64,000 nt of DNA, taken from assembly GCF_003018255.1 (NCBI RefSeq), contig NZ_CP027440.1. One strand, 5' to 3'. Both the position numbers and the translations under genes were made by a program. The DNA is from Escherichia coli. GTDB lineage: Bacteria > Pseudomonadota > Gammaproteobacteria > Enterobacterales > Enterobacteriaceae. Below are positions 6,111 through 39,509 of this stretch, piece after piece (position 1 is the first letter of the stretch; the number at the start of each line of letters is the position of its first letter). The notes under the pieces were generated by a model that had not been told where the DNA came from, ran no database searches, and saw nothing but the letters and a program-made list of their open reading frames with translations.

Positions 6111-7268
6111 TTATCTTGATGTTTTAGATCTTGCCGGCCCAGCTGCACGCAAAGTTAACTGACGCCAGAGCCATTCCACCGGCCCCTGGCGGAAGTAACG
6201 CAGCCAGATAACAGAGAAGAGGATATTCGCCAGCCATACCGGAATAACAAACGCCAGCAGCTCCAGGCGGTCAAAATGCATAAACAAACCGAGGTGGTAA
6301 AAAAGCGTGGTACAAATCAGCGTTTGCAATAGATAGTTGGTCAGCGCCATCCGTCCGACGCAGGCGATCGCAAGCACCAGCTTAAAGCGGCTCAATTGCG
6401 GCCAGAAGCCATAAAACAGCGACGCATAGCCAATCGCCTGAAACGGCGCACTCAGTTCCCGCGGCATCTGAAGTAAAAAGGCACACCAGCGATACGCCCA
6501 GTCCAGCTGCCATTGCAGGGCGATGGCAGGAAGGTTAATGGTCACCCCAATCGCCACCAGCACAAAACCAGTACGACGATAGTGACGTAAGCTGAACTGC
6601 CCTTTCAGCCAGCCGCTGCGCATCAGCGCCGCACCAATGAGCATCATCCCTGCCAGTTGCCAGCCATACTGTGCGCCCAGTGCCAGTAAACTGTTGCCAA
6701 CACCATCGGCACGATTACTGATCGCTTCAACACCACCGTGAAGTTTCCAGTACTTTTCATACAAAATAGCCGATGCATCAGGTGTCCAGGCGCGGCTGGT
6801 CTGGCTATCGGAAATCAACCCCAATAACAGCAAAACGCCAAGCCCCACCAGATAAAGCATGACGCCGGTATTAAACAGGCTTTTTACCGATGGCGCATCG
6901 CGCACCAGCCGCCAGCAGATTAAGCCCACCAGCCCGTAAGCCAGCAGAATATCGCCGTCCCAGAACAATAAACCGTGAATAAAGCCCAGCAAGACTAACA
7001 GCGTTAACCGCGACTGGATCCAGCGTCTGCCACGGGGCAGCAACATTTGCAGGCCAGCACCAAACAGCAGCGCAAAAAGCGTGAGGAATTTCACCTGGCC
7101 GATGAGATCGAGAAATGCCCAGGTCCATGCATCCTGCGGCGTAATAGCGCCGTACCAGGCGGGATTAAGATAAGCCGCCTTTGGTAGCCCAAAGGCGCTG
7201 ATGTTTAATAGCAGGATCCCCAGAATGGCGACGCCGCGAACAAAATCGAGCGTGACGTTGCGCCCCAT
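6111..7268 (-). CDS. yeiB: Inner-membrane protein YeiB (DUF418 family)
   Basis: 385-aa polytopic membrane protein immediately downstream of folE (16-nt gap). Confidence 0.88.
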   Translation of the reverse strand: MGRNVTLDFVRGVAILGILLLNISAFGLPKAAYLNPAWYGAITPQDAWTWAFLDLIGQVKFLTLFALLFGAGLQMLLPRGRRWIQSRLTLLVLLGFIHGLLFWDGDILLAYGLVGLICWRLVRDAPSVKSLFNTGVMLYLVGLGVLLLLGLISDSQTSRAWTPDASAILYEKYWKLHGGVEAISNRADGVGNSLLALGAQYGWQLAGMMLIGAALMRSGWLKGQFSLRHYRRTGFVLVAIGVTINLPAIALQWQLDWAYRWCAFLLQMPRELSAPFQAIGYASLFYGFWPQLSRFKLVLAIACVGRMALTNYLLQTLICTTLFYHLGLFMHFDRLELLAFVIPVWLANILFSVIWLRYFRQGPVEWLWRQLTLRAAGPARSKTSR

Positions 7269-7284
7269 GGTTCCTGCCTTTTAA

Positions 7285-7953
7285 TCAGTTGTGATGACGC
7301 ACAGCGCGCAGAAATTCGTGGCGCGTATTCTGACTGGATTTGAACAATCCACCAAGAGAGGTCGTTGTTGTGGCACTGGTTGCGTCGCGGATGCCACGCG
7401 CTTTCACGCAGTAATGCACCGCGTCGATAGAGACAGCCACGTTATTGGTGCCCAGCAGCGTTTGTAGCGCAATGAGAATTTGCTGGGTCAGACGTTCCTG
7501 TACCTGTGGGCGCTGGGCAAAGAACTGCACGATGCGGTTAATTTTTGACAGACCGATCACCGAATCTTTCGGGATATAAGCCACCGTCGCTTTGCCATCG
7601 ATGGTAACAAAATGGTGTTCACAGGTGCTGGTCAGGGTGATATCGCGCACGGTGACCATTTCATCGACCTTCATTTTGTTTTCAATGAGGGTGATTTTCG
7701 GGAAATTGGCGTAATCCAGACCGGAGAAAATTTCATCGACATACATTTTAGCGATGCGATGCGGCGTTTCCATCAAACTGTCATCAGCCAGGTCGAGATT
7801 CAGCAGCTGCATGATTTCGGTCATATGACCAGCAATAAGGCTTTTGCGCGTTTCGTTATCCATTTCATGCACGGGCGGGCGCAGCGGTGTTTCCAGTCCT
7901 CGCGCAACTAACGCTTCATGAACCAGGGCCGCTTCTTTACTGAGTGATGGCAT
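7285..7953 (-). CDS. folE: GTP cyclohydrolase I
   Basis: 222 aa, matches E. coli FolE ([15 protein letters not shown]...). Confidence 0.94.
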
Positions 7954-8177
7954 TTATGATTTCTCCTGCAGGTGTGACGCCTCCGCCCTGCGTGGGGGCA
8001 AAGTTATTAAGCTGATTTACAGCCTGATTATTGTGCGTGAGGCGGCGCACATAATCCAGTATTCACAGCGATAATTATTGTAATTGCCGCTGCCTTTCAT
8101 CAGCAGATGTTAAAACATCGTTATGCAAATACGGAAGTGAAAGTTACTCACAGCACATTGAATAAACGGTATGATGA

Positions 8178-9047
<870 letters not shown>

Positions 9048-15127: not shown

Positions 15128-15985
15128 ATGAAATACATTGGAGCGCACGTTAGTGCTGCTGGCGGTCTGGCAAATGCCGCAATTCGCGCCGCCGAAATCG
15201 ACGCAACCGCGTTTGCCTTGTTCACCAAAAACCAACGTCAGTGGCGTGCCGCACCGCTCACGACGCAAACCATCGATGAATTCAAAGCCGCCTGTGAAAA
15301 ATATCACTACACATCGGCGCAAATTCTTCCCCACGACAGTTATCTGATTAACCTCGGACATCCGGTTGCTGAAGCTCTGGAAAAATCGCGCGATGCCTTT
15401 ATAGATGAAATGCAGCGTTGCGAACAGCTGGGGCTTTCTTTGCTCAACTTCCACCCTGGCAGCCATCTGATGCAGATTTCAGAAGAGGATTGCCTTGCGC
15501 GTATTGCCGAATCCATCAACATTGCGCTGGATAAAACTCAAGGTGTCACCGCGGTGATTGAAAACACCGCCGGTCAGGGCAGTAACTTAGGGTTTAAATT
15601 CGAACATCTCGCAGCGATTATCGACGGCGTGGAAGATAAATCCCGCGTCGGCGTCTGCATTGATACCTGCCATGCTTTCGCTGCCGGGTATGATTTGCGT
15701 ACTCCTGCCGAATGCGAGAAAACGTTCGCTGATTTTGCCCGTATTGTAGGCTTTAAGTATCTGCGCGGGATGCACCTCAACGATGCGAAAAGCACCTTTG
15801 GCAGCCGCGTTGACCGTCATCATAGCCTCGGCGAAGGCAATATCGGTCATGATGCGTTCCGCTGGATCATGCAAGACGACCGTTTCGACGGCATTCCGCT
15901 GATCCTTGAAACCATCAACCCGGATATCTGGGCAGAAGAGATCGCCTGGCTGAAAGCGCAACAAACTGAAAAAGCGGTGGCCTGA
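15128..15985 (+). CDS. nfo: Endonuclease IV (AP endonuclease)
   Basis: 285 aa, matches E. coli Nfo. Confidence 0.95.
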
Positions 15986-15988
15986 TCG

Positions 15989-17077
15989 ATGAACGACAGG
16001 GAAAAGCAGATTCTTAAAATTTTACGGCGTAACCCGCTGATTCAACAGAACGAAATTGCGGATATGCTGCAAATCAGCCGTTCGCGCGTTGCGGCGCATA
16101 TTATGGATTTAATGCGCAAAGGCCGGATTAAAGGCAAAGGTTACATTCTCACCGAGCAGGAATACTGCGTAGTGGTGGGGACAATCAATATGGATATTCG
16201 CGGGATGGCGGATATCCGTTACCCGCAAGCGGCTTCTCATCCCGGTACCATTCATTGCTCGGCAGGCGGCGTTGGACGCAATATCGCCCACAATCTGGCG
16301 CTGTTAGGCCGCGACGTCCATTTGCTTTCAGTGATTGGCGATGACTTTTATGGCGAAATGCTCCTGGAAGAAACGCGCCGCGCCGGCGTGAATGTCTCCG
16401 GCTGCGTTCGTTTACATGGCCAAAGCACATCGACGTATCTGGCAATTGCCAATCGAGACGATCAAACCGTGCTGGCGATTAACGATACCCATCTGCTGGA
16501 TCAGTTGACACCGCAACTACTGAACGGGTCGCGCGATTTACTTCGTCATGCGGGCGTGGTACTTGCTGATTGTAACCTGACAGCCGAGGCGCTGGAATGG
16601 GTCTTTACCCTCGCTGATGAAATCCCGGTGTTTGTCGATACCGTTTCAGAATTCAAAGCGGGCAAAATCAAACACTGGCTGGCGCATATTCACACCCTGA
16701 AACCCACTTTACCGGAGCTGGAAATTTTATGGGGACAGGCGATCACCAGCGATGCTGACCGTAATGCCGCAGTGAATGCGTTGCATCAGCAAGGCGTTCA
16801 GCAACTGTTTGTTTATTTGCCCGATGAGTCAGTTTATTGCAGCGAAAAGGATGGAGAGCAATTTTTGCTGACAGCGCCAGCGCATACGACAGTAGACAGT
16901 TTTGGTGCTGACGATGGTTTTATGGCGGGCCTGGTATATAGCTTTCTGGAGGGAAACAATTTCCGTGACAGCGCCCGTTTTGCGATGGCCTGCGCGGCAA
17001 TTTCACGCGCCAGCGGCAGCTTAAACAACCCTACCCTGTCTGCCGATAACGCGCTTTCATTAGTGCCGATGGTGTAA
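15989..17077 (+). CDS. yeiI: Putative PfkB-family carbohydrate/nucleoside kinase with N-terminal HTH domain
   Basis: 362 aa. N-terminal winged-helix-like segment followed by a PfkB kinase core (GGVGRNIAHNLALLG) paralogous to PsuK. Starts 3 nt after the nfo stop. Confidence 0.85.
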   Translation: MNDREKQILKILRRNPLIQQNEIADMLQISRSRVAAHIMDLMRKGRIKGKGYILTEQEYCVVVGTINMDIRGMADIRYPQAASHPGTIHCSAGGVGRNIAHNLALLGRDVHLLSVIGDDFYGEMLLEETRRAGVNVSGCVRLHGQSTSTYLAIANRDDQTVLAINDTHLLDQLTPQLLNGSRDLLRHAGVVLADCNLTAEALEWVFTLADEIPVFVDTVSEFKAGKIKHWLAHIHTLKPTLPELEILWGQAITSDADRNAAVNALHQQGVQQLFVYLPDESVYCSEKDGEQFLLTAPAHTTVDSFGADDGFMAGLVYSFLEGNNFRDSARFAMACAAISRASGSLNNPTLSADNALSLVPMV

Positions 17078-17084
17078 CAATGTT

Positions 17085-17118
17085 GCCGGATTCGACGCTT
17101 GACTACATCTTATCCGGC
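17085..17118. repeat. REP-like palindrome (GCCGGA ... ATCCGGC) immediately 3' of nupX
   Basis: Inverted GCCGGAT cores between convergent yeiI and nupX. Confidence 0.5.
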
Positions 17119-17132
17119 TCATAACTCGCGCA

Positions 17133-18383
17133 CTACGCTAAGCCAATAAAGAATCCTGCAATGGTTGCACTCATCAGGTTAGAAAGTGTCGCCGCCGCCA
17201 GCGCGCGTAAACCAAGCTGGGCGATTTCCGGTGCACGGTGTGGCGCAACCGCAGAAAACGCCCCCACCACCACCCCGATAGAACCAAAGTTAGCGAAACC
17301 GCACAACGCGAAGGAAATAATCGCCACGGTTTTAGCATCCAGAGTGCCAGCCGTTTGCAGATAGGGTGAGAAATTGAGGTAAGCGACAAATTCATTTATT
17401 GCCAGTTTCTGTCCAATCAAACTCCCGGCAAGATTCGCATCACTCCAGTCAACACCCATTACCCACGCCAGTGGGGCCAGCAGGTAACCTAAAATGGACT
17501 CCAGCGAGGCATGTTCAAAGCCAAACCAGCCGCCAACGCCGCCGATAATACCGTTAATTAACGCAATGATGGCGACAAATGCCATCACTACTGTCGCCAC
17601 ACCTGCGGCGATTTTCAGCCCGGTCATTGCCCCTGTCGCAGCGGCTTCAATAATGCTTTTTGGCGGTGTTTCGGTGAAAGAGAGGTTATTAAAGGAAACC
17701 TGCGAAGATTCTGTTGCCGGGCTTAACAGGCGGGCAAACAAGATCCCGCCGGGGATCGCCATTAACGATGCCGCCAGCAGATATTCCACAGGCACGCCCA
17801 GTGCGGCGTAACCAATCATTGTCGAACCAGCAATCGAGGCCATCCCGCTACAAATCGCTGTAAATAATTCATTGCGATTCAGACGATTGATAAAGGGTTT
17901 GACGATTGCCGGAATTTCGTTTTGCCCGAGGAAAATGGTAGTGACCGCGACGAATGACTCGATCTTGCTGATATTCAATGCTTTCTGGAAGATACCGCCG
18001 AGAATGCGAATTAAGATCCCCATCACACCGATGTAGTAGAGAATACTCACCAGTGCTGTAACGAAGATAATTGCCGGTAATACCCTGAAACCAAAGATAA
18101 ATCCTGCGCCATCAAATAAGGTATCCATTTTTGGTCCGACCAGAGAACCAAAGATAAATGCGCTACCTGCATCGCTGTACGCCATCACTTTATGCACGCC
18201 AAAAGCGACTTTTTCTGCGACCCAACGCCCTGGTGGTAACCAAAGCATAATGCCGCCAATCACGACCTGTAACACTAACGCCGCGCCAACGGTACGCAGG
18301 CTGATCTTCTTCTTGTTTACTGACAGCAAAAACGCAATTGCCAGCAATACCACCATTCCCAGAACACTTCTCATGACATCCAT
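17133..18383 (-). CDS. nupX: NupC-family nucleoside permease
   Basis: 416 aa, paralog of PsuT in this window. Confidence 0.9.
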   Translation of the reverse strand: MDVMRSVLGMVVLLAIAFLLSVNKKKISLRTVGAALVLQVVIGGIMLWLPPGRWVAEKVAFGVHKVMAYSDAGSAFIFGSLVGPKMDTLFDGAGFIFGFRVLPAIIFVTALVSILYYIGVMGILIRILGGIFQKALNISKIESFVAVTTIFLGQNEIPAIVKPFINRLNRNELFTAICSGMASIAGSTMIGYAALGVPVEYLLAASLMAIPGGILFARLLSPATESSQVSFNNLSFTETPPKSIIEAAATGAMTGLKIAAGVATVVMAFVAIIALINGIIGGVGGWFGFEHASLESILGYLLAPLAWVMGVDWSDANLAGSLIGQKLAINEFVAYLNFSPYLQTAGTLDAKTVAIISFALCGFANFGSIGVVVGAFSAVAPHRAPEIAQLGLRALAAATLSNLMSATIAGFFIGLA

Positions 18384-18408
18384 AGTTATTATCTCTTCAT
18401 GTCATTTT

Positions 18409-18436
18409 GGGCGACGGCTTTCTGCCCATCAGAAAT
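18409..18436 (-). other. Conserved 28-nt leader motif, copy 1 (GGGCGACGGCTTTCTGCCCATCAGAAAT; contains TTTCTG-N5-CAGAAA)
   Basis: Near-identical sequence recurs upstream of psuT at 21637-21664. Confidence 0.4.
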
Positions 18437-18482
18437 AGCCGGGCCTGCATCTTGCGATACTGTCCCGGCTTGTTATCAACAC

Positions 18483-19424
18483 TTAATGGGTTTTGATGTA
18501 GCCGCGCACGCACTCTTCGACTAATCCCCAGAACCAGTCGGTATCAATAGTGATGCCGACTTTGGTATTGGCGGGCTTGCCAAGAACGCCCAGCTCGTCG
18601 CAGACCGTACGCCCGTAGCAAGGGCCGCTGTTAACGTCCACTTCGACGTACATCTCCTGGGTTTTAATGCCATCAGGGTTAATCAGATAACCGATGCAGG
18701 TGGCGTCATGCACCGGGCCGCCAGCCAGGCCGTAGTTTTCGAACTGCGTTTTTAGAGTGAAATTCATGATGTCGCTGAACAGCTCTCCGGCGGGGCCGCC
18801 TACCCTTTCCATCCGAGCAATCACGTCCGGGGTGCAAACAGTCTGGTTGGTGAGATCGAGGCCCATCATCACCAACGGAACGCCGGAGGTGAACACCACG
18901 CGTGCGGCTTCCGGGTCAGCAAAGATGTTGAACTCGGCAGATGGGGTGAAGTTGCCAGTACCGTAAGCGCCGCCCATCAGCACAATTTCACGGATTTTCG
19001 GCAGGATCGCGGGTTGCATACGCATTGCCACCGCGATATTTGAAAGTGGGCCAACCGGCACCAGAGTGATATCGCCATCGCTTGCCATCAGGGTATCGAT
19101 GATATATTTCACCGCATGAGTGCTTTCTGCCTGGCGGGTCAGCGGCTCGAATACCGGGCCATCCAGTCCGGTTTCACCGTGAATATTATCGGCAACGATT
19201 TGTTGACGCATAATGGGCTGTGGCATCCCCGCATAAACCGGAACATTAATCTCCAGTTTCTGGCAAACATTCAGGCCATTAATTAATGTTTTATCAAGCG
19301 TCTGATTACCCGCCACAATGGTGATACCTAATAAATCTATTGCCGGATGTTTCGCTGCCATCATTATGGCAATAGCATCATCATGACCCGGATCACAATC
19401 CAGAATAATTTTTCTCTTTTCCAT
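18483..19424 (-). CDS. rihB: Pyrimidine-specific ribonucleoside hydrolase
   Basis: 313 aa, N-terminal DxDxxxDD nucleoside hydrolase motif ([13 protein letters not shown]). Confidence 0.93.
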
Positions 19425-19592
19425 TGTTTATTTCCTCTGTTTCCAGTTGCGTTATTTTTTCTACAGCAAAGAAAATTCGACCGGGCCGATGATTGAATCT
19501 TAACAACAGCGTAAGTATGCTAAATATGAGAAATCTCATAGCGGATAAACATCGTGAAAGAAATCCACAATAATGACCTTAAGCAGCAATTG

Positions 19593-20252
19593 ATGAGTGA
19601 ATCTGCGTTTAAGGATTGCTTTTCAACGGATGTTTCAGCCGATACGCGGCTGTTTCATTTTTTAGCGCGTGACTACATTGTGCAGGAAGGGCAACAGCCG
19701 TCATGGCTGTTTTATCTGACGCGAGGCCGTGCCAGGCTTTACGCCACGCTTGCTAATGGTCGCGTGTCGCTGATCGATTTCTTTGCCGCTCCCTGTTTTA
19801 TTGGCGAGATTGAGTTAATCGACAAAGACCATGAACCGCGTGCGGTGCAGGCTATTGAAGAGTGTTGGTGCCTTGCGCTCCCTATGAAACATTACCGCCC
19901 GCTGTTATTAAACGACACGCTATTTTTACGAAAACTCTGCGTCACCTTAAGTCATAAAAATTATCGTAATATTGTTTCTTTAACTCAGAATCAATCATTT
20001 CCGTTAGTGAATCGCCTGGCAGCTTTTATATTACTCTCGCAGGAAGGTGATCTTTATCACGAAAAGCATACGCAAGCGGCAGAGTATTTAGGTGTTTCTT
20101 ATCGACATCTTTTATATGTTCTCGCGCAATTCATTCACGACGGTTTATTAATTAAAAGCAAGAAAGGGTATCTCATTAAAAACAGAAAGCAGTTGTCAGG
20201 ACTGGCACTGGAGATGGACCCGGAAAATAAATTCTCAGGGATGATGCAGTAA
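19593..20252 (+). CDS. yeiL: CRP/FNR-family transcriptional regulator
   Basis: Start trimmed to the ATG giving 219 aa (MSESAF...). cNMP-binding-like fold plus C-terminal HTH. Confidence 0.85.
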
Positions 20253-20275
20253 AAATTATTTGCAATAGAGCGATT

Positions 20276-20311
20276 GCCGGATGTGACGCTTAATAAGCGC
20301 GTACATCCGGC
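20276..20311. repeat. REP-like palindrome (GCCGGATGT ... ACATCCGGC) immediately 3' of psuT
   Basis: 9-bp inverted arms between convergent yeiL and psuT. Confidence 0.55.
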
Positions 20312-20319
20312 AATGACAC

Positions 20320-21570
20320 TCAAGCTAAACCAATAAAGAACCCGGCAATGGTCGCGCTCATCAGGTTGGAAAGCGTTGCTGCTGCCAGCGCCCGTAAACC
20401 AAGCTGGGCGATTTCCGGTGCGCGTTTTGGCGAAATAGCCGAAAATGCCCCAACGACAACACCGATAGAACCAAAGTTAGCAAAACCACAAAGCGCAAAG
20501 GAGATAATCGCAATGGTTTTCACTTCCAGCGTGCCGCCCGTTTGCAGGTATGGGGAGAAACTCAGGTAAGCGACGAATTCGTTAATCGCCAGTTTCTGCC
20601 CAATCAGGCTACCCGCAAGATTGGCATCACTCCAGTCCACACCCATGATCCACGCCAGCGGTGCCAGCACATAGCCAAAAATACTTTCCAGAGAGGCATT
20701 GGCGAAACCAAACCAGCCGCCAATTCCGCCGATAATGCCGTTGATCAGCGCAATAATTGCGACAAACGCCATTACAACCGTCGCCACACCAGCGGCGATT
20801 TTCAGCCCGGTCATCGCACCGCTCGCCGCCGCTTCGATAAAGCTTTTTGGCGGCGTTTCGCTGAACGACAGATTTTCAAATGTCACCTGCGAAGGCTCGG
20901 TGGCTGGGCTAAGAATACGTGCAAACAAAATACCACCAGGGATCGCCATCAGCGATGCCGCTAACAGGTAGTCAATTGGTACGCCCATTCCGGCATAACC
21001 AATCATCATCGAACCAGCAATGGACGCCATCCCGCTACAAATTGCGGTAAACAACTCGTTGCGATTCATGCGATCGATAAACGGTTTAACGATCGCCGGG
21101 ATCTCATTTTGCCCGAGGAAAATAGTGGTAACCGCAACAAAAGATTCGATTTTGCTGATGTTGAGGGCTTTCTGGAAAATGCTGCCAAGGATGCGAATCA
21201 GCAGCCCCATCACGCCAATGTAGTACAGCAGACTGATGAGCGCAGTGACGAAGATAATCGCCGGAAGTACGCGAAAGGCGAAGATAAAACCCGCACCGTC
21301 AAAGAGGACATCCATTTTCGGCCCGACCAGCGAACCAAAAATGAAGGCGCTACCGGCATCACTGTAAGACATCACTTTATGAACGCCTAATGCCGCCTGT
21401 TCTACCGCCCATTTTCCTGGTGGAAAATAGAGCATGATTCCGCCAATGGCGATTTGTAGCAGCAACGCGGCTCCAACCGTGCGCAAACTGATGCTCTTTT
21501 TATTCACTGACAACAGAAATGCTATTGCCAGTAACACCACCATCCCCACAACACTTCTCATTATATCCAT
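20320..21570 (-). CDS. psuT: NupC-family transporter, putative pseudouridine permease
   Basis: 416 aa, full-length paralog of NupX, last gene of psuK-psuG-psuT. Confidence 0.9.
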   Translation of the reverse strand: MDIMRSVVGMVVLLAIAFLLSVNKKSISLRTVGAALLLQIAIGGIMLYFPPGKWAVEQAALGVHKVMSYSDAGSAFIFGSLVGPKMDVLFDGAGFIFAFRVLPAIIFVTALISLLYYIGVMGLLIRILGSIFQKALNISKIESFVAVTTIFLGQNEIPAIVKPFIDRMNRNELFTAICSGMASIAGSMMIGYAGMGVPIDYLLAASLMAIPGGILFARILSPATEPSQVTFENLSFSETPPKSFIEAAASGAMTGLKIAAGVATVVMAFVAIIALINGIIGGIGGWFGFANASLESIFGYVLAPLAWIMGVDWSDANLAGSLIGQKLAINEFVAYLSFSPYLQTGGTLEVKTIAIISFALCGFANFGSIGVVVGAFSAISPKRAPEIAQLGLRALAAATLSNLMSATIAGFFIGLA

Positions 21571-21636
21571 ATTGATTTTCCCTTCATGCCAGTAAACCCG
21601 GCGTCAGCGCCAGGTTTTGGTATGCTTGATGAGTAC

Positions 21637-21664
21637 GGGCGACGGCTTTCTGCCCGTCAGAAAT
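21637..21664 (-). other. Conserved 28-nt leader motif, copy 2 (GGGCGACGGCTTTCTGCCCGTCAGAAAT)
   Basis: Abuts the psuG stop codon and lies upstream of psuT. One mismatch to copy 1. Confidence 0.4.
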
Positions 21665-22602
21665 TAACCCGCGAGACGCTGGTATTCTTTGGCTATTTCA
21701 CTCGCCAGGATGGCGTTGTTGAACACCAGCTGGATGTTGGATTTCAGGCTGTCACCGCCGGTCAACTCAGCAACGCGCGCCAGCAGGAATGGCGTACTTT
21801 CTTTACCAATAACACCCTGCGCTTCAGCTTCAGCTACCGCCTGATCGATCGCCGCATTGATAGTGTGTTCCGGCATAGCAAACTGTTCCGGAATCGGGTT
21901 CGCTACCACGAGGCCACCGTTCAGCCCGCTTTGCCATTTCACCGCCATTGCACGGGCAATTTCGCTGGCGCTGTCGAGACGAATGCTCACGTCAAACGGG
22001 CTGGTGCGGCAGAAAAACGCAGGCAGCGCTTTGGTCTGATAGCCAATTAGCGGTACACCGAAAGTTTCTAAATATTCGGTAGTTAAGCCTAAATCGAGAA
22101 TAGATTTCGCCCCGGCACAAACGACGGTGACATTGGTGTGCGCCAGTTCTTGCAAATCGGCAGAAATATCGAAGGTATGTTCCGCCCCGCGATGCACACC
22201 ACCAATTCCCCCGGTGGCAAATACTTTAATTCCGGCAAGCGCCGCAATAATCATCGTTGAAGCAACGGTGGTTGCACCATTTTTTCCGGCGGCAACAACA
22301 AAAGGTAAATCGCGACGACTAACTTTGGTCACGTTATGCCCTTCACGACCCAGCAATTCAATTTCTTCTTTGCTTAAACCCACTTTCATCACGCCGCCAA
22401 TAATGGCGATAGTGGCAGGTACAGCGCCCTGTTTACGAATAGTTTCTTCAACTTCAATTGCGGTCTGGGCATTTTGTGGGAACGGCATCCCGTGAGAAAT
22501 AATGGTCGATTCCAGCGCCACAACCGGTTTTTTGTTTTTTAAAGCGTCCTGCACTTCCGGGGAAATTTGTAATAATTCAGGGGAAATTTTTAATTCAGAC
22601 AT
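21664..22602 (-). CDS. psuG: Pseudouridine-5'-phosphate glycosidase
   Basis: 312 aa, matches YeiN/PsuG. Confidence 0.92.
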   Translation of the reverse strand: MSELKISPELLQISPEVQDALKNKKPVVALESTIISHGMPFPQNAQTAIEVEETIRKQGAVPATIAIIGGVMKVGLSKEEIELLGREGHNVTKVSRRDLPFVVAAGKNGATTVASTMIIAALAGIKVFATGGIGGVHRGAEHTFDISADLQELAHTNVTVVCAGAKSILDLGLTTEYLETFGVPLIGYQTKALPAFFCRTSPFDVSIRLDSASEIARAMAVKWQSGLNGGLVVANPIPEQFAMPEHTINAAIDQAVAEAEAQGVIGKESTPFLLARVAELTGGDSLKSNIQLVFNNAILASEIAKEYQRLAG

Positions 22603-23531
22603 TCTGCGTTCTCCACTAACGATATAACGTTGGCAATCGATAAATCGGGGTTATTGGTGTATTCACAGGAGAGCGCCATTGACGAACATCCCTGTGCGAA
22701 ACGAACAGATTCGGCAAACGGCATTCCGTCTACCCAACACGAAGCAAGTCCCGCCATCATGGCATCGCCCGCTCCGGTAACATTAATGACATTGGTTTTG
22801 ATCGGCGCAGACCAACCACTTTCACCGCTGATATCACTGTAATAAACGCCGTCGCCGCCCATGCTCAATACCAGTCGGTTCAGGCCATGTTGATGGAACC
22901 AGGCAGCAACTTTTGCCACATCTTCACGCCCTGACAAAGCAATCCCACTCAGGGTTTCCGCTTCAAGGCGGTTTGGCTTGAGAGTGTGGATTTGATTTAG
23001 ACGGTCGCGCACTTTGACACATTTCCACGCGGAAACAGGATCGACAAATACGGGTACGTTGGCGGCATTATCCAGAATCCATGCCAGTGCCTCTTCACTG
23101 ATATTACAGTCCGCGACAATGACCTTTGCCCTCTGAATAAATTCACCGTGCTGTGCGAGATATTCAGCTGTAATAGCGTTGCTAATATTCATGTCATTTA
23201 TAGCAACCAGCATTTCACCGGTATTATCGAGTAATGATAAATAGCTCGACGTATTTTCTCCCGGCACAATCAGGCATTTATCGACATAAACACCAGATTG
23301 ATTGGTTTGCGTTAGCAGCGATTGACCATAAAAATCACTGCCTACGGCGCTCAGTAGCCAGGCTTTATTCCCCAGCAACGCCAGGTTTTGTGCAATATTG
23401 CGCCCTACTCCACCAGGCGTAAACTTTATTTTACCTGGATTTGAATCCGCATAATTTAATGATTCATGTGAATATCCGGCGACATCAATATTCGCCGAAC
23501 CTATAATTACGACATAATCCTTTTCGCGCAT
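22590..23531 (-). CDS. psuK: Pseudouridine kinase (PfkB family)
   Basis: 313 aa, PfkB motifs GGVGRNIAQNLALLG and GAGDAMMAG. Overlaps psuG by 13 nt. Confidence 0.92.
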   Translation of the reverse strand: MREKDYVVIIGSANIDVAGYSHESLNYADSNPGKIKFTPGGVGRNIAQNLALLGNKAWLLSAVGSDFYGQSLLTQTNQSGVYVDKCLIVPGENTSSYLSLLDNTGEMLVAINDMNISNAITAEYLAQHGEFIQRAKVIVADCNISEEALAWILDNAANVPVFVDPVSAWKCVKVRDRLNQIHTLKPNRLEAETLSGIALSGREDVAKVAAWFHQHGLNRLVLSMGGDGVYYSDISGESGWSAPIKTNVINVTGAGDAMMAGLASCWVDGMPFAESVRFAQGCSSMALSCEYTNNPDLSIANVISLVENAECLN

Positions 23532-23598
23532 AGCACGTCCTCTGGTAAAAAATTACCAACCCTGTCAATCCACAAGAATATAGATACTGCAAAGACGG

Positions 23599-23634
23599 TT
23601 TAAACATGTGTTCATATTTAAACATGTGCTCATA
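23599..23634. repeat. Perfect tandem 18-bp direct repeat (TTTAAACATGTG[T/C]TCATA x2) upstream of psuK
   Basis: Two adjacent units differing at one position, 68-103 bp upstream of the psuK ATG. A partial third copy follows. Confidence 0.6.
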
Positions 23635-23771
23635 GTATGCATGTTTTACGTAAAGTAAATTACCGCCAGAGATGCAAAATGGGCAGATTTGAGCAGGCTC
23701 ACAAAACGCGATTAAATGCCTGAATTATAAAAACGGGGAATTTGTGACGGAATGCACAGAACAGGAACACT

Positions 23772-23797
23772 AAAAAAGGGCAGAAATTAATCTGCCC
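23772..23797 (-). terminator. Rho-independent terminator (GGGCAGA-ttaatt-TCTGCCC plus U-run on minus strand) distal to fruA
   Basis: Stem-loop followed by six U on the minus-strand transcript. Confidence 0.6.
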
Positions 23798-23913
23798 TTG
23801 AGGAAATAACCTTAGTGTTTGATGAAAGTTTCAGGTTTCCACTAAAAGATAAAACCATTTAAATTCATAAAATTACATTCACAAACCGGTCATTCTCTTT
23901 GCGCGCATCAAAT

Positions 23914-23944
23914 GTTCCAGGGCAGGAAATTTCTGCCCTGGAAC
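23914..23944 (-). terminator. 12-bp perfect stem-loop immediately 3' of fruA (GTTCCAGGGCAG ... CTGCCCTGGAAC)
   Basis: Near-perfect 31-nt palindrome 11 nt past the fruA stop. U-tract is weak. Confidence 0.45.
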
Positions 23945-23954
23945 ACACCTTTTA

Positions 23955-25646
23955 TTACGCTGCTTTTGCTACTGCGTCCACTTCCGGACGTTTCAGGAAG
24001 GCATAGGCCAGACCCGCCACCAGCGTACCGGCAATAATGGCTACCAGGTAACCCAGTACCGGCGTAATAGCGCCAGGGATCAGCAGAACAAACAGACCAC
24101 CGTGCGGTGCCATCAGTTTCGCACCAATCGCCATTGAGATTGCGCCAGTCAGCGCCCCACCAACGATACAACACGGCAGCACACGCATCGGATCACGAGC
24201 AGCAAACGGAATTGCACCTTCCGAAATAAAGCACAGACCAAGAACCAGAGCGGCTTTGCCACCTTCCTGCTGCGCTTTGTCGAATTTGCGACGCGCCACC
24301 ATTGTTGCCAGACCCATTGCCAGCGGTGGCACCATACCTGCCGCCATAATCGCCGCCATCGGGCCATAGGTTTGAGTACTCAGCAGACCCACACCGAATG
24401 CGTACGCTGCTTTATTTACCGGACCGCCCATGTCAGTACACATCATGCCACCGAGGATCGCCCCCAGCAGAACCGCATTCGCAGTCCCCATGGTCTGCAG
24501 CCAGTGAGTCAACCCTTCGAGAATGCCAGCAACCGGTTTACCGATCAGGTAGATCATCGCCAGACCGACCACCAGACTGGAAATTAGCGGAATGATCAGG
24601 ATCGGTTTCAGCGCCTCCATACTCTGTGGCAGTTTCAGTTGCGTACTGATTAACTTCGCAATGTAACCAGCCAGGAAGCCCGCAATAATACCCCCAATGA
24701 AGCCAGAACCGGTGCTGACCGCCAGCATACCCCCAATCAGACCCGGCGTGAGACCCGGACGATCGGCAATGGAGAAGGCAATGTAACCTGCCAGTACCGG
24801 CACCATCAGCGCAAAGGCTGAACCACCACCAATCTGCATCAGCGCCGCTGCCAACGTACCCGGCTCTTTAAACGCTTCGATACCAAAAGCAAAAGAAAGC
24901 GCGATACACAGACCACCTGCAACGACCATCGGCAGCATGTAAGAGACGCCCGTCAGCAAGTGACGGTAAGCGCCTGCACCCTCTTTCTTACCTTCAGTGG
25001 TCGCTGTTTGAGCTTTGCCCGCCGGTTCATACGGCGTTGCTTCAGCAACCGCTTTATCCAGTTCCTGCGCGGTTTTCTTCAGCGCCAGACCGGTAGAGGT
25101 GCGATACATCGGTTTACCAGCAAATTTCGCCAGATCCACTTCGATATCTGCCGCCACAATCACCAGATCCGCTGCGGCTACTTCTTCAGGGGTGATCGCA
25201 TTACCCGCGCCAACAGAACCACGGGTTTCAACTTTCACCCACCAGCCACGTTTTTTCGCTTCGGTTTCAATGGCTTCAGCCGCCATAAATGTGTGTGCTA
25301 CGCCAGTCGGGCAAGCTGTCACCGCAACTACGCGTTTCGGACCGCTGGTGGCAACTGGTGCTGTCGCAGCGACCGGTGCAGTGTAAGGTTTCGCATGGCC
25401 TTTGGCTTCACTCAGGAACAGCTCAGGGTGCGCAACTGCCCGGGAAATATCGCCCAGCCAGACATTTTTACCGTTCAGCGCGCTGTCGTTCGGGATGGAA
25501 TCACCGAGAACAATCGCCATTTCAGCGTCGTTCGGATTGTCGATGATTTCCAGTTTTGCTTTTCGCGCCGCCGCGCCCAGCAGGGTCTTCGCCATATAGG
25601 CGCGTGCCTGACCGAGATTAGCGTCAATAATCAGCAGCGTTTTCAT
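23955..25646 (-). CDS. fruA: Fructose PTS enzyme IIB'BC
   Basis: 563 aa, matches E. coli FruA. Confidence 0.95.
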   Translation of the reverse strand: MKTLLIIDANLGQARAYMAKTLLGAAARKAKLEIIDNPNDAEMAIVLGDSIPNDSALNGKNVWLGDISRAVAHPELFLSEAKGHAKPYTAPVAATAPVATSGPKRVVAVTACPTGVAHTFMAAEAIETEAKKRGWWVKVETRGSVGAGNAITPEEVAAADLVIVAADIEVDLAKFAGKPMYRTSTGLALKKTAQELDKAVAEATPYEPAGKAQTATTEGKKEGAGAYRHLLTGVSYMLPMVVAGGLCIALSFAFGIEAFKEPGTLAAALMQIGGGSAFALMVPVLAGYIAFSIADRPGLTPGLIGGMLAVSTGSGFIGGIIAGFLAGYIAKLISTQLKLPQSMEALKPILIIPLISSLVVGLAMIYLIGKPVAGILEGLTHWLQTMGTANAVLLGAILGGMMCTDMGGPVNKAAYAFGVGLLSTQTYGPMAAIMAAGMVPPLAMGLATMVARRKFDKAQQEGGKAALVLGLCFISEGAIPFAARDPMRVLPCCIVGGALTGAISMAIGAKLMAPHGGLFVLLIPGAITPVLGYLVAIIAGTLVAGLAYAFLKRPEVDAVAKAA

Positions 25647-38414: not shown

Positions 38415-39509
38415 ATGGGCGCTTATCTGATTCGCCGTCTGTTGCTGGTGATCCCAACGTTATGGGCGATTATCACTATCAACTTTTTCATCGTGCAAAT
38501 TGCGCCTGGCGGTCCGGTCGACCAGGCCATCGCCGCCATTGAGTTTGGTAATACTGGTGTATTACCCGGTGCAGGCGGTGAAGGTGTTCGCGCCAGCCAT
38601 GCACAAACGGGCGTCGGTAATATCAGCGACAGTAATTACCGTGGCGGACGCGGATTGGATCCAGAAGTGATCGCCGAGATCACTCATCGCTACGGTTTCG
38701 ATAAGCCGATCCACGAACGTTACTTCAAAATGCTCTGGGACTACATCCGTTTTGATTTTGGCGACAGCCTTTTTCGCAGCGCCTCGGTGCTGACGCTGAT
38801 TAAAGACAGTCTGCCGGTCTCCATCACCCTCGGATTGTGGAGCACGCTGATTATCTATCTGGTGTCGATTCCGTTAGGCATTCGCAAAGCTGTTTATAAT
38901 GGGAGCCGTTTTGACGTCTGGAGTAGTGCATTTATCATCATCGGCTACGCCATTCCGGCCTTTTTGTTTGCCATCCTGCTGATTGTCTTCTTCGCGGGCG
39001 GCAGCTATTTCGACCTGTTCCCTCTGCGCGGCCTGGTTTCCGCTAACTTTGATTCGCTGCCGTGGTATCAGAAAATCACCGATTATCTGTGGCATATCAC
39101 GCTGCCGGTGCTGGCGACAGTGATTGGCGGCTTTGCGGCTCTGACCATGCTGACAAAAAACTCATTCCTTGATGAAGTGCGTAAGCAATACGTGGTGACG
39201 GCACGTGCGAAAGGGGTAAGTGAAAAAAATATTCTCTGGAAACATGTGTTCCGCAACGCCATGCTGCTGGTGATTGCCGGTTTTCCGGCGACGTTTATCA
39301 GCATGTTTTTTACCGGCTCGCTGCTGATTGAGGTGATGTTTTCACTCAATGGTCTTGGCTTACTGGGCTACGAAGCGACCGTCTCGCGCGATTATCCTGT
39401 AATGTTTGGTACCTTGTATATTTTCACCCTGATTGGCCTGCTGCTGAATATTGTCAGTGATATCAGCTATACGCTGGTCGATCCGCGTATAGATTTTGAG
39501 GGACGTTAA
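38415..39509 (+). CDS. yejB: ABC transporter permease
   Basis: 364 aa, starts 1 nt after the yejA stop. Confidence 0.92.

Follow-up and report, generated by a model that had tools for sequence, protein, structure and literature searches.

The yeiI–psuK locus of Escherichia coli as two probable interleaved nucleoside units, with YeiI as a candidate pseudouridine-responsive regulator

INTRODUCTION

The annotated Escherichia coli K-12 chromosome carries, between nfo and fruA, seven genes for nucleoside use: yeiI, nupX (yeiJ), rihB (yeiK), yeiL, psuT (yeiM), psuG (yeiN) and psuK (yeiC). We analysed this locus at positions 15989–23531 of a 64,000-nt stretch of E. coli DNA (contig NZ_CP027440.1 of RefSeq assembly GCF_003018255.1; hereafter the window). 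The window is no different in kind from K-12, whose copy has the same genes, order and products at 96–98.5% identity per gene. The seven genes, their functions (except that of YeiI) and both paralogies, that of the transporters NupX and PsuT and that of YeiI with the kinase PsuK, are already in the annotation or the literature. The biochemistry of PsuK and PsuG has been established (PMC9247573, PMC9061257). RihB is a hydrolase of uridine and cytidine with published kinetics (PMC10526354). NupX and PsuT were assigned to one clade of the CNT family; NupX transported uridine and cytidine weakly, and transport of uridine, cytidine and xanthosine by PsuT was not detected (PMC11241209). Deletion of psuT lowers re-uptake in pseudouridine producer strains (PMC13090712), which is indirect evidence for uptake. 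YeiI has been listed as uncharacterised (PMC9061257) and as a hypothetical transcription factor with no target given (PMC6055005), in keeping with an earlier reading of the window from its letters alone (the sequence-only reading), in which the yeiI arm was the least defined part. A literature search found no publication on psu regulation.

The ROK-family repressors NagC and Mlc are sugar-kinase-fold sensors that have a paralogous true kinase in the same organism. They resemble YeiI in having a kinase-like domain as the (for YeiI, proposed) ligand sensor, and differ in fold (ROK/ASKHA versus PfkB/ribokinase), in the type of helix-turn-helix (HTH) and in the operator. A DNA-binding domain fused to an enzyme domain of the pathway that it controls is also found in archaeal RbkR (a riboflavin kinase with an HTH; PMC5397151), NadR, BirA and NrtR (PMC2330246). 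In those regulators a substrate or product is the effector and the operator lies upstream of the pathway operon, an arrangement to which our proposal for YeiI may be likened. What sets the present case apart is that an HTH–PsuK fusion seems to have been copied, one copy becoming an enzyme without the HTH and the other a paralogue that has the HTH and a changed catalytic motif; the kinase fold is PfkB, and the DNA binding of YeiI is predicted. The remaining genes, rihB-nupX with the divergent yeiL, resemble xapR-xapA-xapB (PMC11241209) in combining a dedicated regulator, a nucleoside-cleaving enzyme and a matching transporter, although the regulator is of the CRP/FNR and not the LysR type, the enzyme a hydrolase and not a phosphorylase, and the transporter a CNT and not an NHS protein.

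Here we compare the locus across genera. We lean towards the view that it consists of two functionally separate units that are interleaved, rather than of a duplicated module, and that YeiI is a split-off, pseudouridine-sensing regulator.

RESULTS

Gene order and the two units of the locus

The gene order is nfo, yeiI (+), nupX and rihB (−), yeiL (+), psuT, psuG and psuK (−), and fruA, on which the open reading frames and RefSeq agree. An 8.5-kb stretch around the locus was matched over at least 80% of its length in 5,374 of 5,426 complete genomes (top identity, 99.4%). The genes and the candidate regulatory sites are as follows.

15989–17077, plus strand: yeiI, winged HTH (residues 1–48) and pseudouridine-kinase-like PfkB domain (RefSeq match)
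17133–18383, minus strand: nupX, CNT-family nucleoside transporter of the yeiL-rihB-nupX cassette (TIGR00804, CNT Pfam domains)
18483–19424, minus strand: rihB, pyrimidine (uridine/cytidine) nucleoside hydrolase (NF007417, IU_nuc_hydro)
19525–19540: 16-bp palindrome TATGAGAAATCTCATA in the yeiL–rihB divergent region, candidate YeiL operator (invariant core)
19554–20252, plus strand: yeiL, CRP/FNR-family regulator, divergent from rihB-nupX (NF007707, cNMP_binding and HTH_Crp_2)
20320–21570, minus strand: psuT, CNT-family transporter of the pseudouridine operon (TIGR00804, Pfam domains)
21664–22602, minus strand: psuG, pseudouridine-5'-phosphate glycosidase (Indigoidine_A, 441 bits; RefSeq annotation)
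22590–23531, minus strand: psuK, pseudouridine kinase without an HTH domain (NF007355; solved structure of the 7vkp type)
23602–23613 and 23620–23631: pair of AACAnnTGTT-type palindromes with an 18-bp spacing, upstream of psuK; candidate operators for YeiI (motif)
23688–23703, minus strand: CRP-box-like TGTGAGCCTGCTCAAA ahead of psuK (recognised by eye from the CRP consensus)

Synteny was decisive for which genes belong together. In E. albertii, three Citrobacter species, Leclercia and Pluralibacter, nfo-yeiI converges on psuT-psuG-psuK, followed farther on by fruA, and the locus has one transporter and neither rihB nor yeiL. yeiI was also found with psuT-psuG-psuK in another genomic context in Affinibrenneria, and, truncated, on a Salmonella IncFIB plasmid. 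The latter is the Salmonella Macclesfield IncFIB megaplasmid (NZ_CP022118.1; loci L086/L099), where the truncated yeiI converges on psuT-psuG-psuK. Because of the synteny across these loci, we take yeiI to be the partner of psuKGT and not of nupX-rihB. The sequence-only reading had grouped yeiI-nupX-rihB and had suggested a synteny comparison across Enterobacteriaceae as a check; since yeiI lies directly next to psuT, without nupX, rihB and yeiL, in other genera, that grouping is an accident of insertion.

The PsuG protein matched PF04227 (Indigoidine_A) with 441 bits over profile positions 1–291 of 291; no NCBIfam model matched it, and the identical protein is named psuG in RefSeq. In PMC10761123, PsuG is described as cutting the C–C glycosidic bond of pseudouridine 5'-phosphate, so that its earlier description as an N-glycosidic-bond enzyme has to be replaced.

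The remaining genes behave as a unit of their own. yeiL, divergent from rihB and a 416-aa CNT transporter gene, recurs as a set of three genes, in unrelated genomic surroundings, in Superficieibacter, Hafnia, Raoultella and Rouxiella, and the RihB proteins of cassettes in other genera are 85–91% identical to E. coli RihB. The palindrome TATGAGAtttCTCATA (TATGAGA-TT-TCTCATA, window 19525–19540) is invariant in all seven cassette copies, from five genera, while the rest of the yeiL–rihB spacer diverges. It has 7-bp arms, lies ~14 nt upstream of the yeiL start and is a good candidate for the YeiL operator. The assignments of the proteins are firm: YeiL scored 420.5 bits on NF007707 (cut-off 180) and has both PF00027 and PF13545; RihB scored 726.9 bits on NF007417 (cut-off 459) and 330 bits on PF01156 (IU_nuc_hydro), and its residues 10–17, DCDPGHDD, fit the N-terminal DXDXXXDD Ca-binding motif; NupX and PsuT scored 499.4 and 517.6 bits on TIGR00804 (cut-off 442, NCBIfam scan), and the three CNT Pfam domains (Nucleos_tra2_N, Gate and Nucleos_tra2_C) were found in both. 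The published substrate data fit a cassette for uridine/cytidine uptake and hydrolysis, because RihB hydrolyses both nucleosides, NupX moves both weakly and PsuT moves neither.

The cassette was found in E. coli and in two divergent Escherichia lineages (loci L002 and L090), and was not at this locus in E. albertii or in the more distant genera examined. The literature consulted on the K-12 locus does not describe this insertion history. The L090 copy (7174–8864; sample labelled E. ruysiae) is decayed, with yeiL split into two open reading frames, a 287-aa RihB and no nupX; 287-aa RihB variants also occur in many E. coli entries.

YeiI and PsuK are paralogues with a different domain content

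The common PfkB core of YeiI and PsuK, noted from the letters alone, was borne out: residues 54–359 of YeiI align with residues 1–306 of PsuK at 39% identity (E = 2e-76). Relative to PsuK, YeiI has ~53 extra N-terminal residues. Pfam HTH_24 matched residues 1–48 with 43.3 bits (threshold 21.9), and PfkB matched with 230 bits. In the NCBIfam scan YeiI scored 814 bits on its own equivalog, NF007416; the next model was pseudouridine kinase with 257.9 bits, versus 103 bits for ribokinase. This places YeiI below the cut-off of the PsuK equivalog NF007355 (540 bits), on which PsuK itself scored 713.8 bits. The solved structures nearest to YeiI are those of E. coli PsuK (EcPsuK).

The residues of EcPsuK that contact pseudouridine are N14, D16, S30', G41, V42, N45, Y97, M114, N143, V166, S167, K170 and D256 (PMC9247573). 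The window PsuK has all 13 of them, and the GAGD motif. YeiI retains 12, with M114 replaced by threonine (T167), which is compatible with pseudouridine binding but no proof of it. The canonical GAGD phosphoryl-transfer/anion-hole motif, adjacent to these residues, reads GADD in YeiI. Among 21 proteins compared, N14, D16, S30, G41, V42, N45, N143, V166, S167 and K170 are conserved in all. The YeiI orthologues form a clade of their own (88% bootstrap). M114T is confined to the core of this clade; GADD is found in the clade and GADE in its basal Affinibrenneria member, which keeps M114, while all PsuK and HTH–PsuK proteins have GAGD.

The HTH–PsuK proteins are encoded by HTH_24–PfkB genes that stand in the psuK position. 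Such a gene overlaps psuG in Yersinia, Xenorhabdus, Pasteurella, Shewanella and Klebsiella sp. BIGb0407, and a CNT transporter gene follows in all but Shewanella. A separate psuK or yeiI was not seen within ~6 kb in these fusion loci. The kinase domains of the fusions are 45–60% identical to EcPsuK, versus 39–48% to YeiI, and keep Met114 and GAGD. There are hence two architectures, HTH–PsuK, PsuG and (in some loci) PsuT (architecture A), and an HTH-less PsuK followed by PsuG and PsuT, with a convergent YeiI (architecture B). In both, the HTH is present exactly once per psu locus, and YeiI and the fusions have almost the same HTH sequence, ISRSxVAxHI included. This is the signature that duplication of a bifunctional gene, followed by complementary loss, would leave.

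Xenorhabdus (locus L100, CP147734.1) carries a second, orphan HTH–PfkB paralogue beside an IS605-type gene, with Y97C and GAGD kept. It is an independent duplication of the fusion, and was set aside as uninformative.

Candidate YeiI operators upstream of psuK

Thirteen of 15 loci have AACAnnTGTT palindromes ahead of the kinase gene, often as two copies ~18 bp apart. Altogether 16 sites were counted in the 15 regions upstream of the kinase genes, where 0.15 would be expected; none of 2000 shuffles gave more than 3. Perfect CAAACAnnTGTTTG sites are found in Yersinia and Shewanella. Judged by eye, the motif-bearing upstream regions of Yersinia, Xenorhabdus, Pasteurella and Shewanella have no other evident likeness to the enteric ones. 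In the window, the two sites lie between psuK and the CRP-like box and overlap the −35 element of a scan-predicted promoter. The CRP consensus is TGTGA-N6-TCACA, and the CRP-like box is conserved in the enterobacterial architecture-B loci. A second exact operator-like match in the window, at 39240–39251, lies inside a coding sequence and was taken as chance.

The sole DNA-binding domain consistently associated with these operons is the winged helix of YeiI and HTH–PsuK, and for this reason we infer that YeiI may repress psuKGT at the AACAnnTGTT sites, with release by pseudouridine or its 5'-monophosphate (Psi-MP), CRP giving catabolite control. The odds appear to us even that YeiI is a transcription factor responsive to pseudouridine that arose when a bifunctional HTH–pseudouridine kinase was duplicated and split, and that it controls psuKGT through the paired sites.

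Several observations weigh against this role. The motif is present only in imperfect form in two of the 15 loci, those of Citrobacter FP75 and Klebsiella BIGb0407, and the enterobacterial copies are not independent, their promoters being alignable. There are 3 nt between nfo and the start of yeiI, which lacks a separate operator, and IncHI1A plasmids bear psuKGT without yeiI. The literature search yielded no experiment on DNA binding by YeiI or on its response to pseudouridine. YeiI also keeps the catalytic Asp, and it fits PROSITE PfkB signature 2, which allows [GD]-D; kinase activity, perhaps on a modified nucleoside, may thus have been retained.

Carried further, YeiI may be mainly an enzyme, a kinase for a modified or non-pseudouridine nucleoside (for example, methylated pseudouridine) that works with NupX and RihB or alone, and whose HTH serves at most for autoregulation. 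Besides the catalytic Asp, its ribose-binding residues are intact, M114T enlarges the base pocket, and yeiI adjoins nupX in E. coli; moreover, the architecture-A fusions must be active kinases because those operons have no other kinase. However, the adjacency to nupX is secondary, and elsewhere the cassette occurs without such a kinase. The base-hydrogen-bonding residues N143, S167, K170 and S30' are all unchanged; all members of the YeiI clade, and they alone, have another residue for the glycine of GAGD, and neither architecture of the psu locus lacks its single HTH. We regard a mainly enzymatic YeiI as unlikely.

Between fruA and psuK there are two strong G+C-rich hairpins, at 23776–23799 (minus strand) and 23913–23945. 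One is a palindrome with a 15-bp stem directly after fruA; the other, GGGCAGA...TCTGCCC followed by a T-run, is kept upstream of psuK in L002, in locus L082 (E. coli strain S3), in Leclercia and in Pluralibacter. Both are presumably terminators of the fru operon.

The transporter repeat, its leader hairpin and its REP-like tail

NupX and PsuT are collinear over 416 aa, as had been noted, with 367 identical residues (88%), 95% positives and 0 gaps; the near-identical N-termini (MDVMRSVLGMVVLLAIAFLLSVNKK and MDIMRSVVGMVVLLAIAFLLSVNKK, respectively) and the identical C-termini are as quoted in the sequence-only reading. In the DNA, the repeat is limited to three pieces, a leader motif, the transporter coding sequence and a palindrome resembling a repetitive extragenic palindromic (REP) element, with a start-to-start spacing of 3187 bp. 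The elements flanking the two coding sequences are listed below.

17085–17118: REP-like palindrome downstream of nupX, between nupX and yeiI (pattern match)
18408–18428, minus strand: leader hairpin UGGGC-11 nt-GCCCA, rihB–nupX intergenic, within the 28-nt motif 18409–18436 (conserved)
20276–20311: REP-like palindrome downstream of psuT (pattern match)
21594–21618, minus strand: second, terminator-like hairpin, in the psuT leader only; 9–10 bp stem, then UUU
21636–21656, minus strand: leader hairpin CGGGC-11 nt-GCCCG, just past the psuG stop codon (conserved)

The leader motif common to both transporters matches at 27 of 28 positions (18409–18436 versus 21637–21664), and the coding sequences are 75–83% identical in every 150-nt window. 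The DNA homology ends at the psuG stop codon on one side and just past the palindrome on the other. GCCGGAT...ATCCGGC has its sole two matches in the 64-kb window at 17085–17118 and 20276–20311 (0.01 expected). A palindrome does follow each transporter gene, as the sequence-only reading had it; a 43-nt query over the nupX-side copy (17080–17122) matched a median of three places per E. coli genome at E ≤ 10, too few to prove REP membership by this search. Because of this count, 'REP-like' is the safe wording for these extragenic palindromes with GCCGGAT/ATCCGGC arms.

The core of the leader is a 5-bp stem, (C/U)GGGC...GCCC(G/A), closing an 11-nt loop with a conserved GCnGUC. The hairpin precedes both psuG-linked and rihB-linked transporter genes, and was found in Escherichia, Citrobacter, Leclercia, Pluralibacter, the Salmonella plasmid, Superficieibacter, Raoultella and Rouxiella; it was not found in Hafnia, nor in the more distant Yersinia, Xenorhabdus and Pasteurella loci. 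Covariation is seen at two of its five base pairs, the closing one (CG/UA/UG) and one that changes from GC to AU in Leclercia. A search of Rfam at permissive thresholds over 15500–24200 gave nothing credible for the leader motif. A role at the mRNA level, for example in processing, stability or enzyme/transporter attenuation, is plausible, because the hairpin travels with the transporter gene. The terminator-like hairpin at 21594–21618 sits in a 41-nt stretch that is missing from the nupX leader of the window. A TTTCTG-N5-CAGAAA palindrome, present only at both leaders but Escherichia-specific, was dropped in favour of the covarying GGGC/GCCC stem.

Ectopic exchange was also noted at the 3' ends of nupX and psuT (window 17133–17400 and 20320–20590; loci L002 and L083). 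The last ~250 nt of the L002 nupX are psuT-like, 91–97% identical to psuT, and the terminal codon/stop variants GCGTAG, GCTTGA and GCGTAA are distributed differently between nupX and psuT in the window strain, in K-12-type strains and in L002. A Campbell-type integration inside the transporter gene, considered from the stop-codon and 3'-flank types, was abandoned, the three terminal variants being reshuffled among strains.

Age of nupX and origin of the cassette

The synonymous divergence (dS) between nupX and psuT is 1.23 and the nonsynonymous divergence (dN) is 0.076, which agrees with the earlier view that the transporter split is old. These values equal those of E. coli–Citrobacter and E. 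coli–Leclercia psuT orthologues, and E. coli and E. albertii psuT lie far below them (dS 0.5–0.7, dN 0.006–0.009). In a bootstrapped neighbour-joining tree, Escherichia PsuT is monophyletic (100%), and Escherichia and Citrobacter PsuT group without NupX (79%). An in situ duplication after the split of E. albertii is ruled out by dS and by this tree. E. albertii PsuT is PsuT-like along its whole length except for the last few sites. The GC content of the locus gives no clear foreign signal, except for the lower-GC yeiL (~43%).

We think it likely that the cassette was acquired as a unit. Acquisition is favoured because an older in situ duplication needs several independent losses. On the other side, NupX and the other rihB-linked transporters grouped at only 37% bootstrap in the neighbour-joining tree, leaving the sister group unplaced, and the signature sites for that sister group are split 2/0/1. 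An origin of the cassette in an Escherichia/Citrobacter ancestor, followed by export, is therefore conceivable.

Such a local origin would start from a tandem duplication of psuT, with its leader and REP-like tail, in that ancestor; rihB and yeiL would have been recruited between the copies, and the cassette, once exported, would have disappeared from E. albertii, Citrobacter and other taxa when the direct repeats recombined. The leader hairpin common to psuG-linked and rihB-linked transporters agrees with this course of events, as do the fact that these direct repeats do recombine and the grouping of all these transporters in one tight clade (100%) in which the exact position of NupX is unsettled. 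It requires, however, at least 2–4 independent precise losses against one gain, it has to account for the placing of NupX outside Escherichia and Citrobacter PsuT and for an E. albertii PsuT that is PsuT-like over nearly its full length, and the candidate operator is invariant in cassettes of four distant genera in unrelated contexts. We find a local origin improbable, and retain acquisition as a unit.

The sequence-only reading had proposed that an ancestral kinase–glycosidase–transporter module was duplicated as a segment, that its copies subfunctionalised and that one of them swapped its enzyme. The locus does hold two paralogous pairs within 7.5 kb, with a leader motif and a REP-like tail common to both transporters, but we consider this account very improbable: only the leader/transporter/REP-like unit is duplicated; the arms are not collinear in order or orientation, psuK-psuG-psuT being one operon and yeiI being convergent to rihB-nupX, with the kinases on opposite strands at opposite ends; RihB (IU_nuc_hydro) and PsuG (Indigoidine_A) have unrelated folds; the divergence of the pairs is hugely different (transporters 88%, kinases 39% identical); yeiI adjoins psuT wherever the cassette is missing; and the cassette stands alone, without a yeiI-like gene, in Hafnia, Raoultella and Rouxiella. 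Subfunctionalisation probably did take place between YeiI and PsuK within the pseudouridine system, and not between two duplicated modules.

Variation within E. coli and mobile copies

A deep allelic dimorphism was observed inside E. coli at 15989–17077 and 20320–23531 (loci L082, L098 and L006). Compared with the window, strain S3 (L082) has nucleotide identities of 81% for yeiI and psuK, 88% for psuG and 89% for psuT, between flanks that are normal (nfo, yeiH and yeiE, 99–99.8%; fruA, 97.7%); its rihB (95.8%) and yeiL (98%) are normal as well. The S3 alleles are ~91–92% identical to E. albertii, which is a species-level distance; window-type alleles are 80–81% identical to E. albertii and 92–93% to the cryptic-clade loci L002 and L090. 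L098 is a mixed haplotype, with a divergent yeiI and window-type psuKGT.

nupX is missing from ~968 of 5,426 E. coli records, in which the best match to it is psuT at 60–80% identity. In L082 (4079–4345) an internal deletion of ~1.14 kb, bounded by TAAC microhomologies, accounts for the absence; 66 nt remain at the 5' end of the gene and ~48 nt at the 3' end. One E. coli genome (locus L084, NZ_CP180694.1, 2989–4791) has lost all between yeiI and psuK, and its truncated yeiI overlaps an extended psuK open reading frame. The plasmid pLAO65 (locus L085, NZ_OP242285.1), a conjugative IncHI1A plasmid of the 250-kb class, carries yeiL-psuT-psuG-psuK and a 69-codon rihB stub beside an ISVsa5 transposase gene; its psuK allele is 99.7% identical to the L082 class, and the same partial match was obtained with five further large E. 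coli plasmids.

DISCUSSION

If the locus consists of two interleaved units, the first would be a four-gene pseudouridine system, psuK-psuG-psuT with the convergent yeiI, and the second the self-contained yeiL-rihB-nupX, with its own CRP/FNR-type regulator and a conserved palindromic candidate operator. The second would have come between psuT and yeiI in the lineage leading to E. coli and the cryptic clades, after the split of E. albertii, most likely acquired as a unit, its nupX being an old psuT paralogue with the same leader hairpin and a REP-like tail. This insertion would have made two ~80%-identical direct repeats 3187 bp apart, which still exchange their 3' ends.

Within the pseudouridine unit, YeiI and PsuK would both descend, through an older duplication, from a pseudouridine kinase with a fused HTH. 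PsuK would have lost the HTH and stayed an enzyme, while YeiI would have kept the HTH and the pseudouridine-binding pocket and changed GAGD to GADD and the base-clamp Met to Thr. YeiI is predicted to bind the paired AACAnnTGTT between the CRP-like box and psuK, and would repress psuKGT until pseudouridine or Psi-MP fills its kinase-like domain. The anatomy of the locus, its synteny and the conservation of residues and motifs were observed directly, whereas DNA binding, the response to ligand and the direction in which the cassette moved are predictions.

What the sequence-only reading had found adds nothing beyond the E. coli K-12 annotation, and its evolutionary reading was partly right. Of most use here are a testable function for the orphan yeiI, that of a candidate regulator of pseudouridine catabolism with a candidate operator at 23602–23631, and a corrected grouping of the genes. 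The latter does away with the grouping of yeiI and nupX-rihB as a module, which is tempting but wrong and could send the hunt for substrates astray. The proposed function bears on the use of pseudouridine, an abundant RNA breakdown product, by gut and urinary E. coli, and is relevant to production strains of pseudouridine engineered in psuG and psuT (PMC13090712, PMC10552469, PMC12500856).

The history proposed for YeiI and PsuK would be an example of a fused enzyme–regulator splitting into an enzyme and a sensor. If it is true, the HTH–PsuK fusions of other Gammaproteobacteria would be autoregulating enzyme–repressors, YeiI would join the known class of enzyme-derived regulators as a new member, and E. 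coli would have a dedicated sensor for a modified nucleoside.

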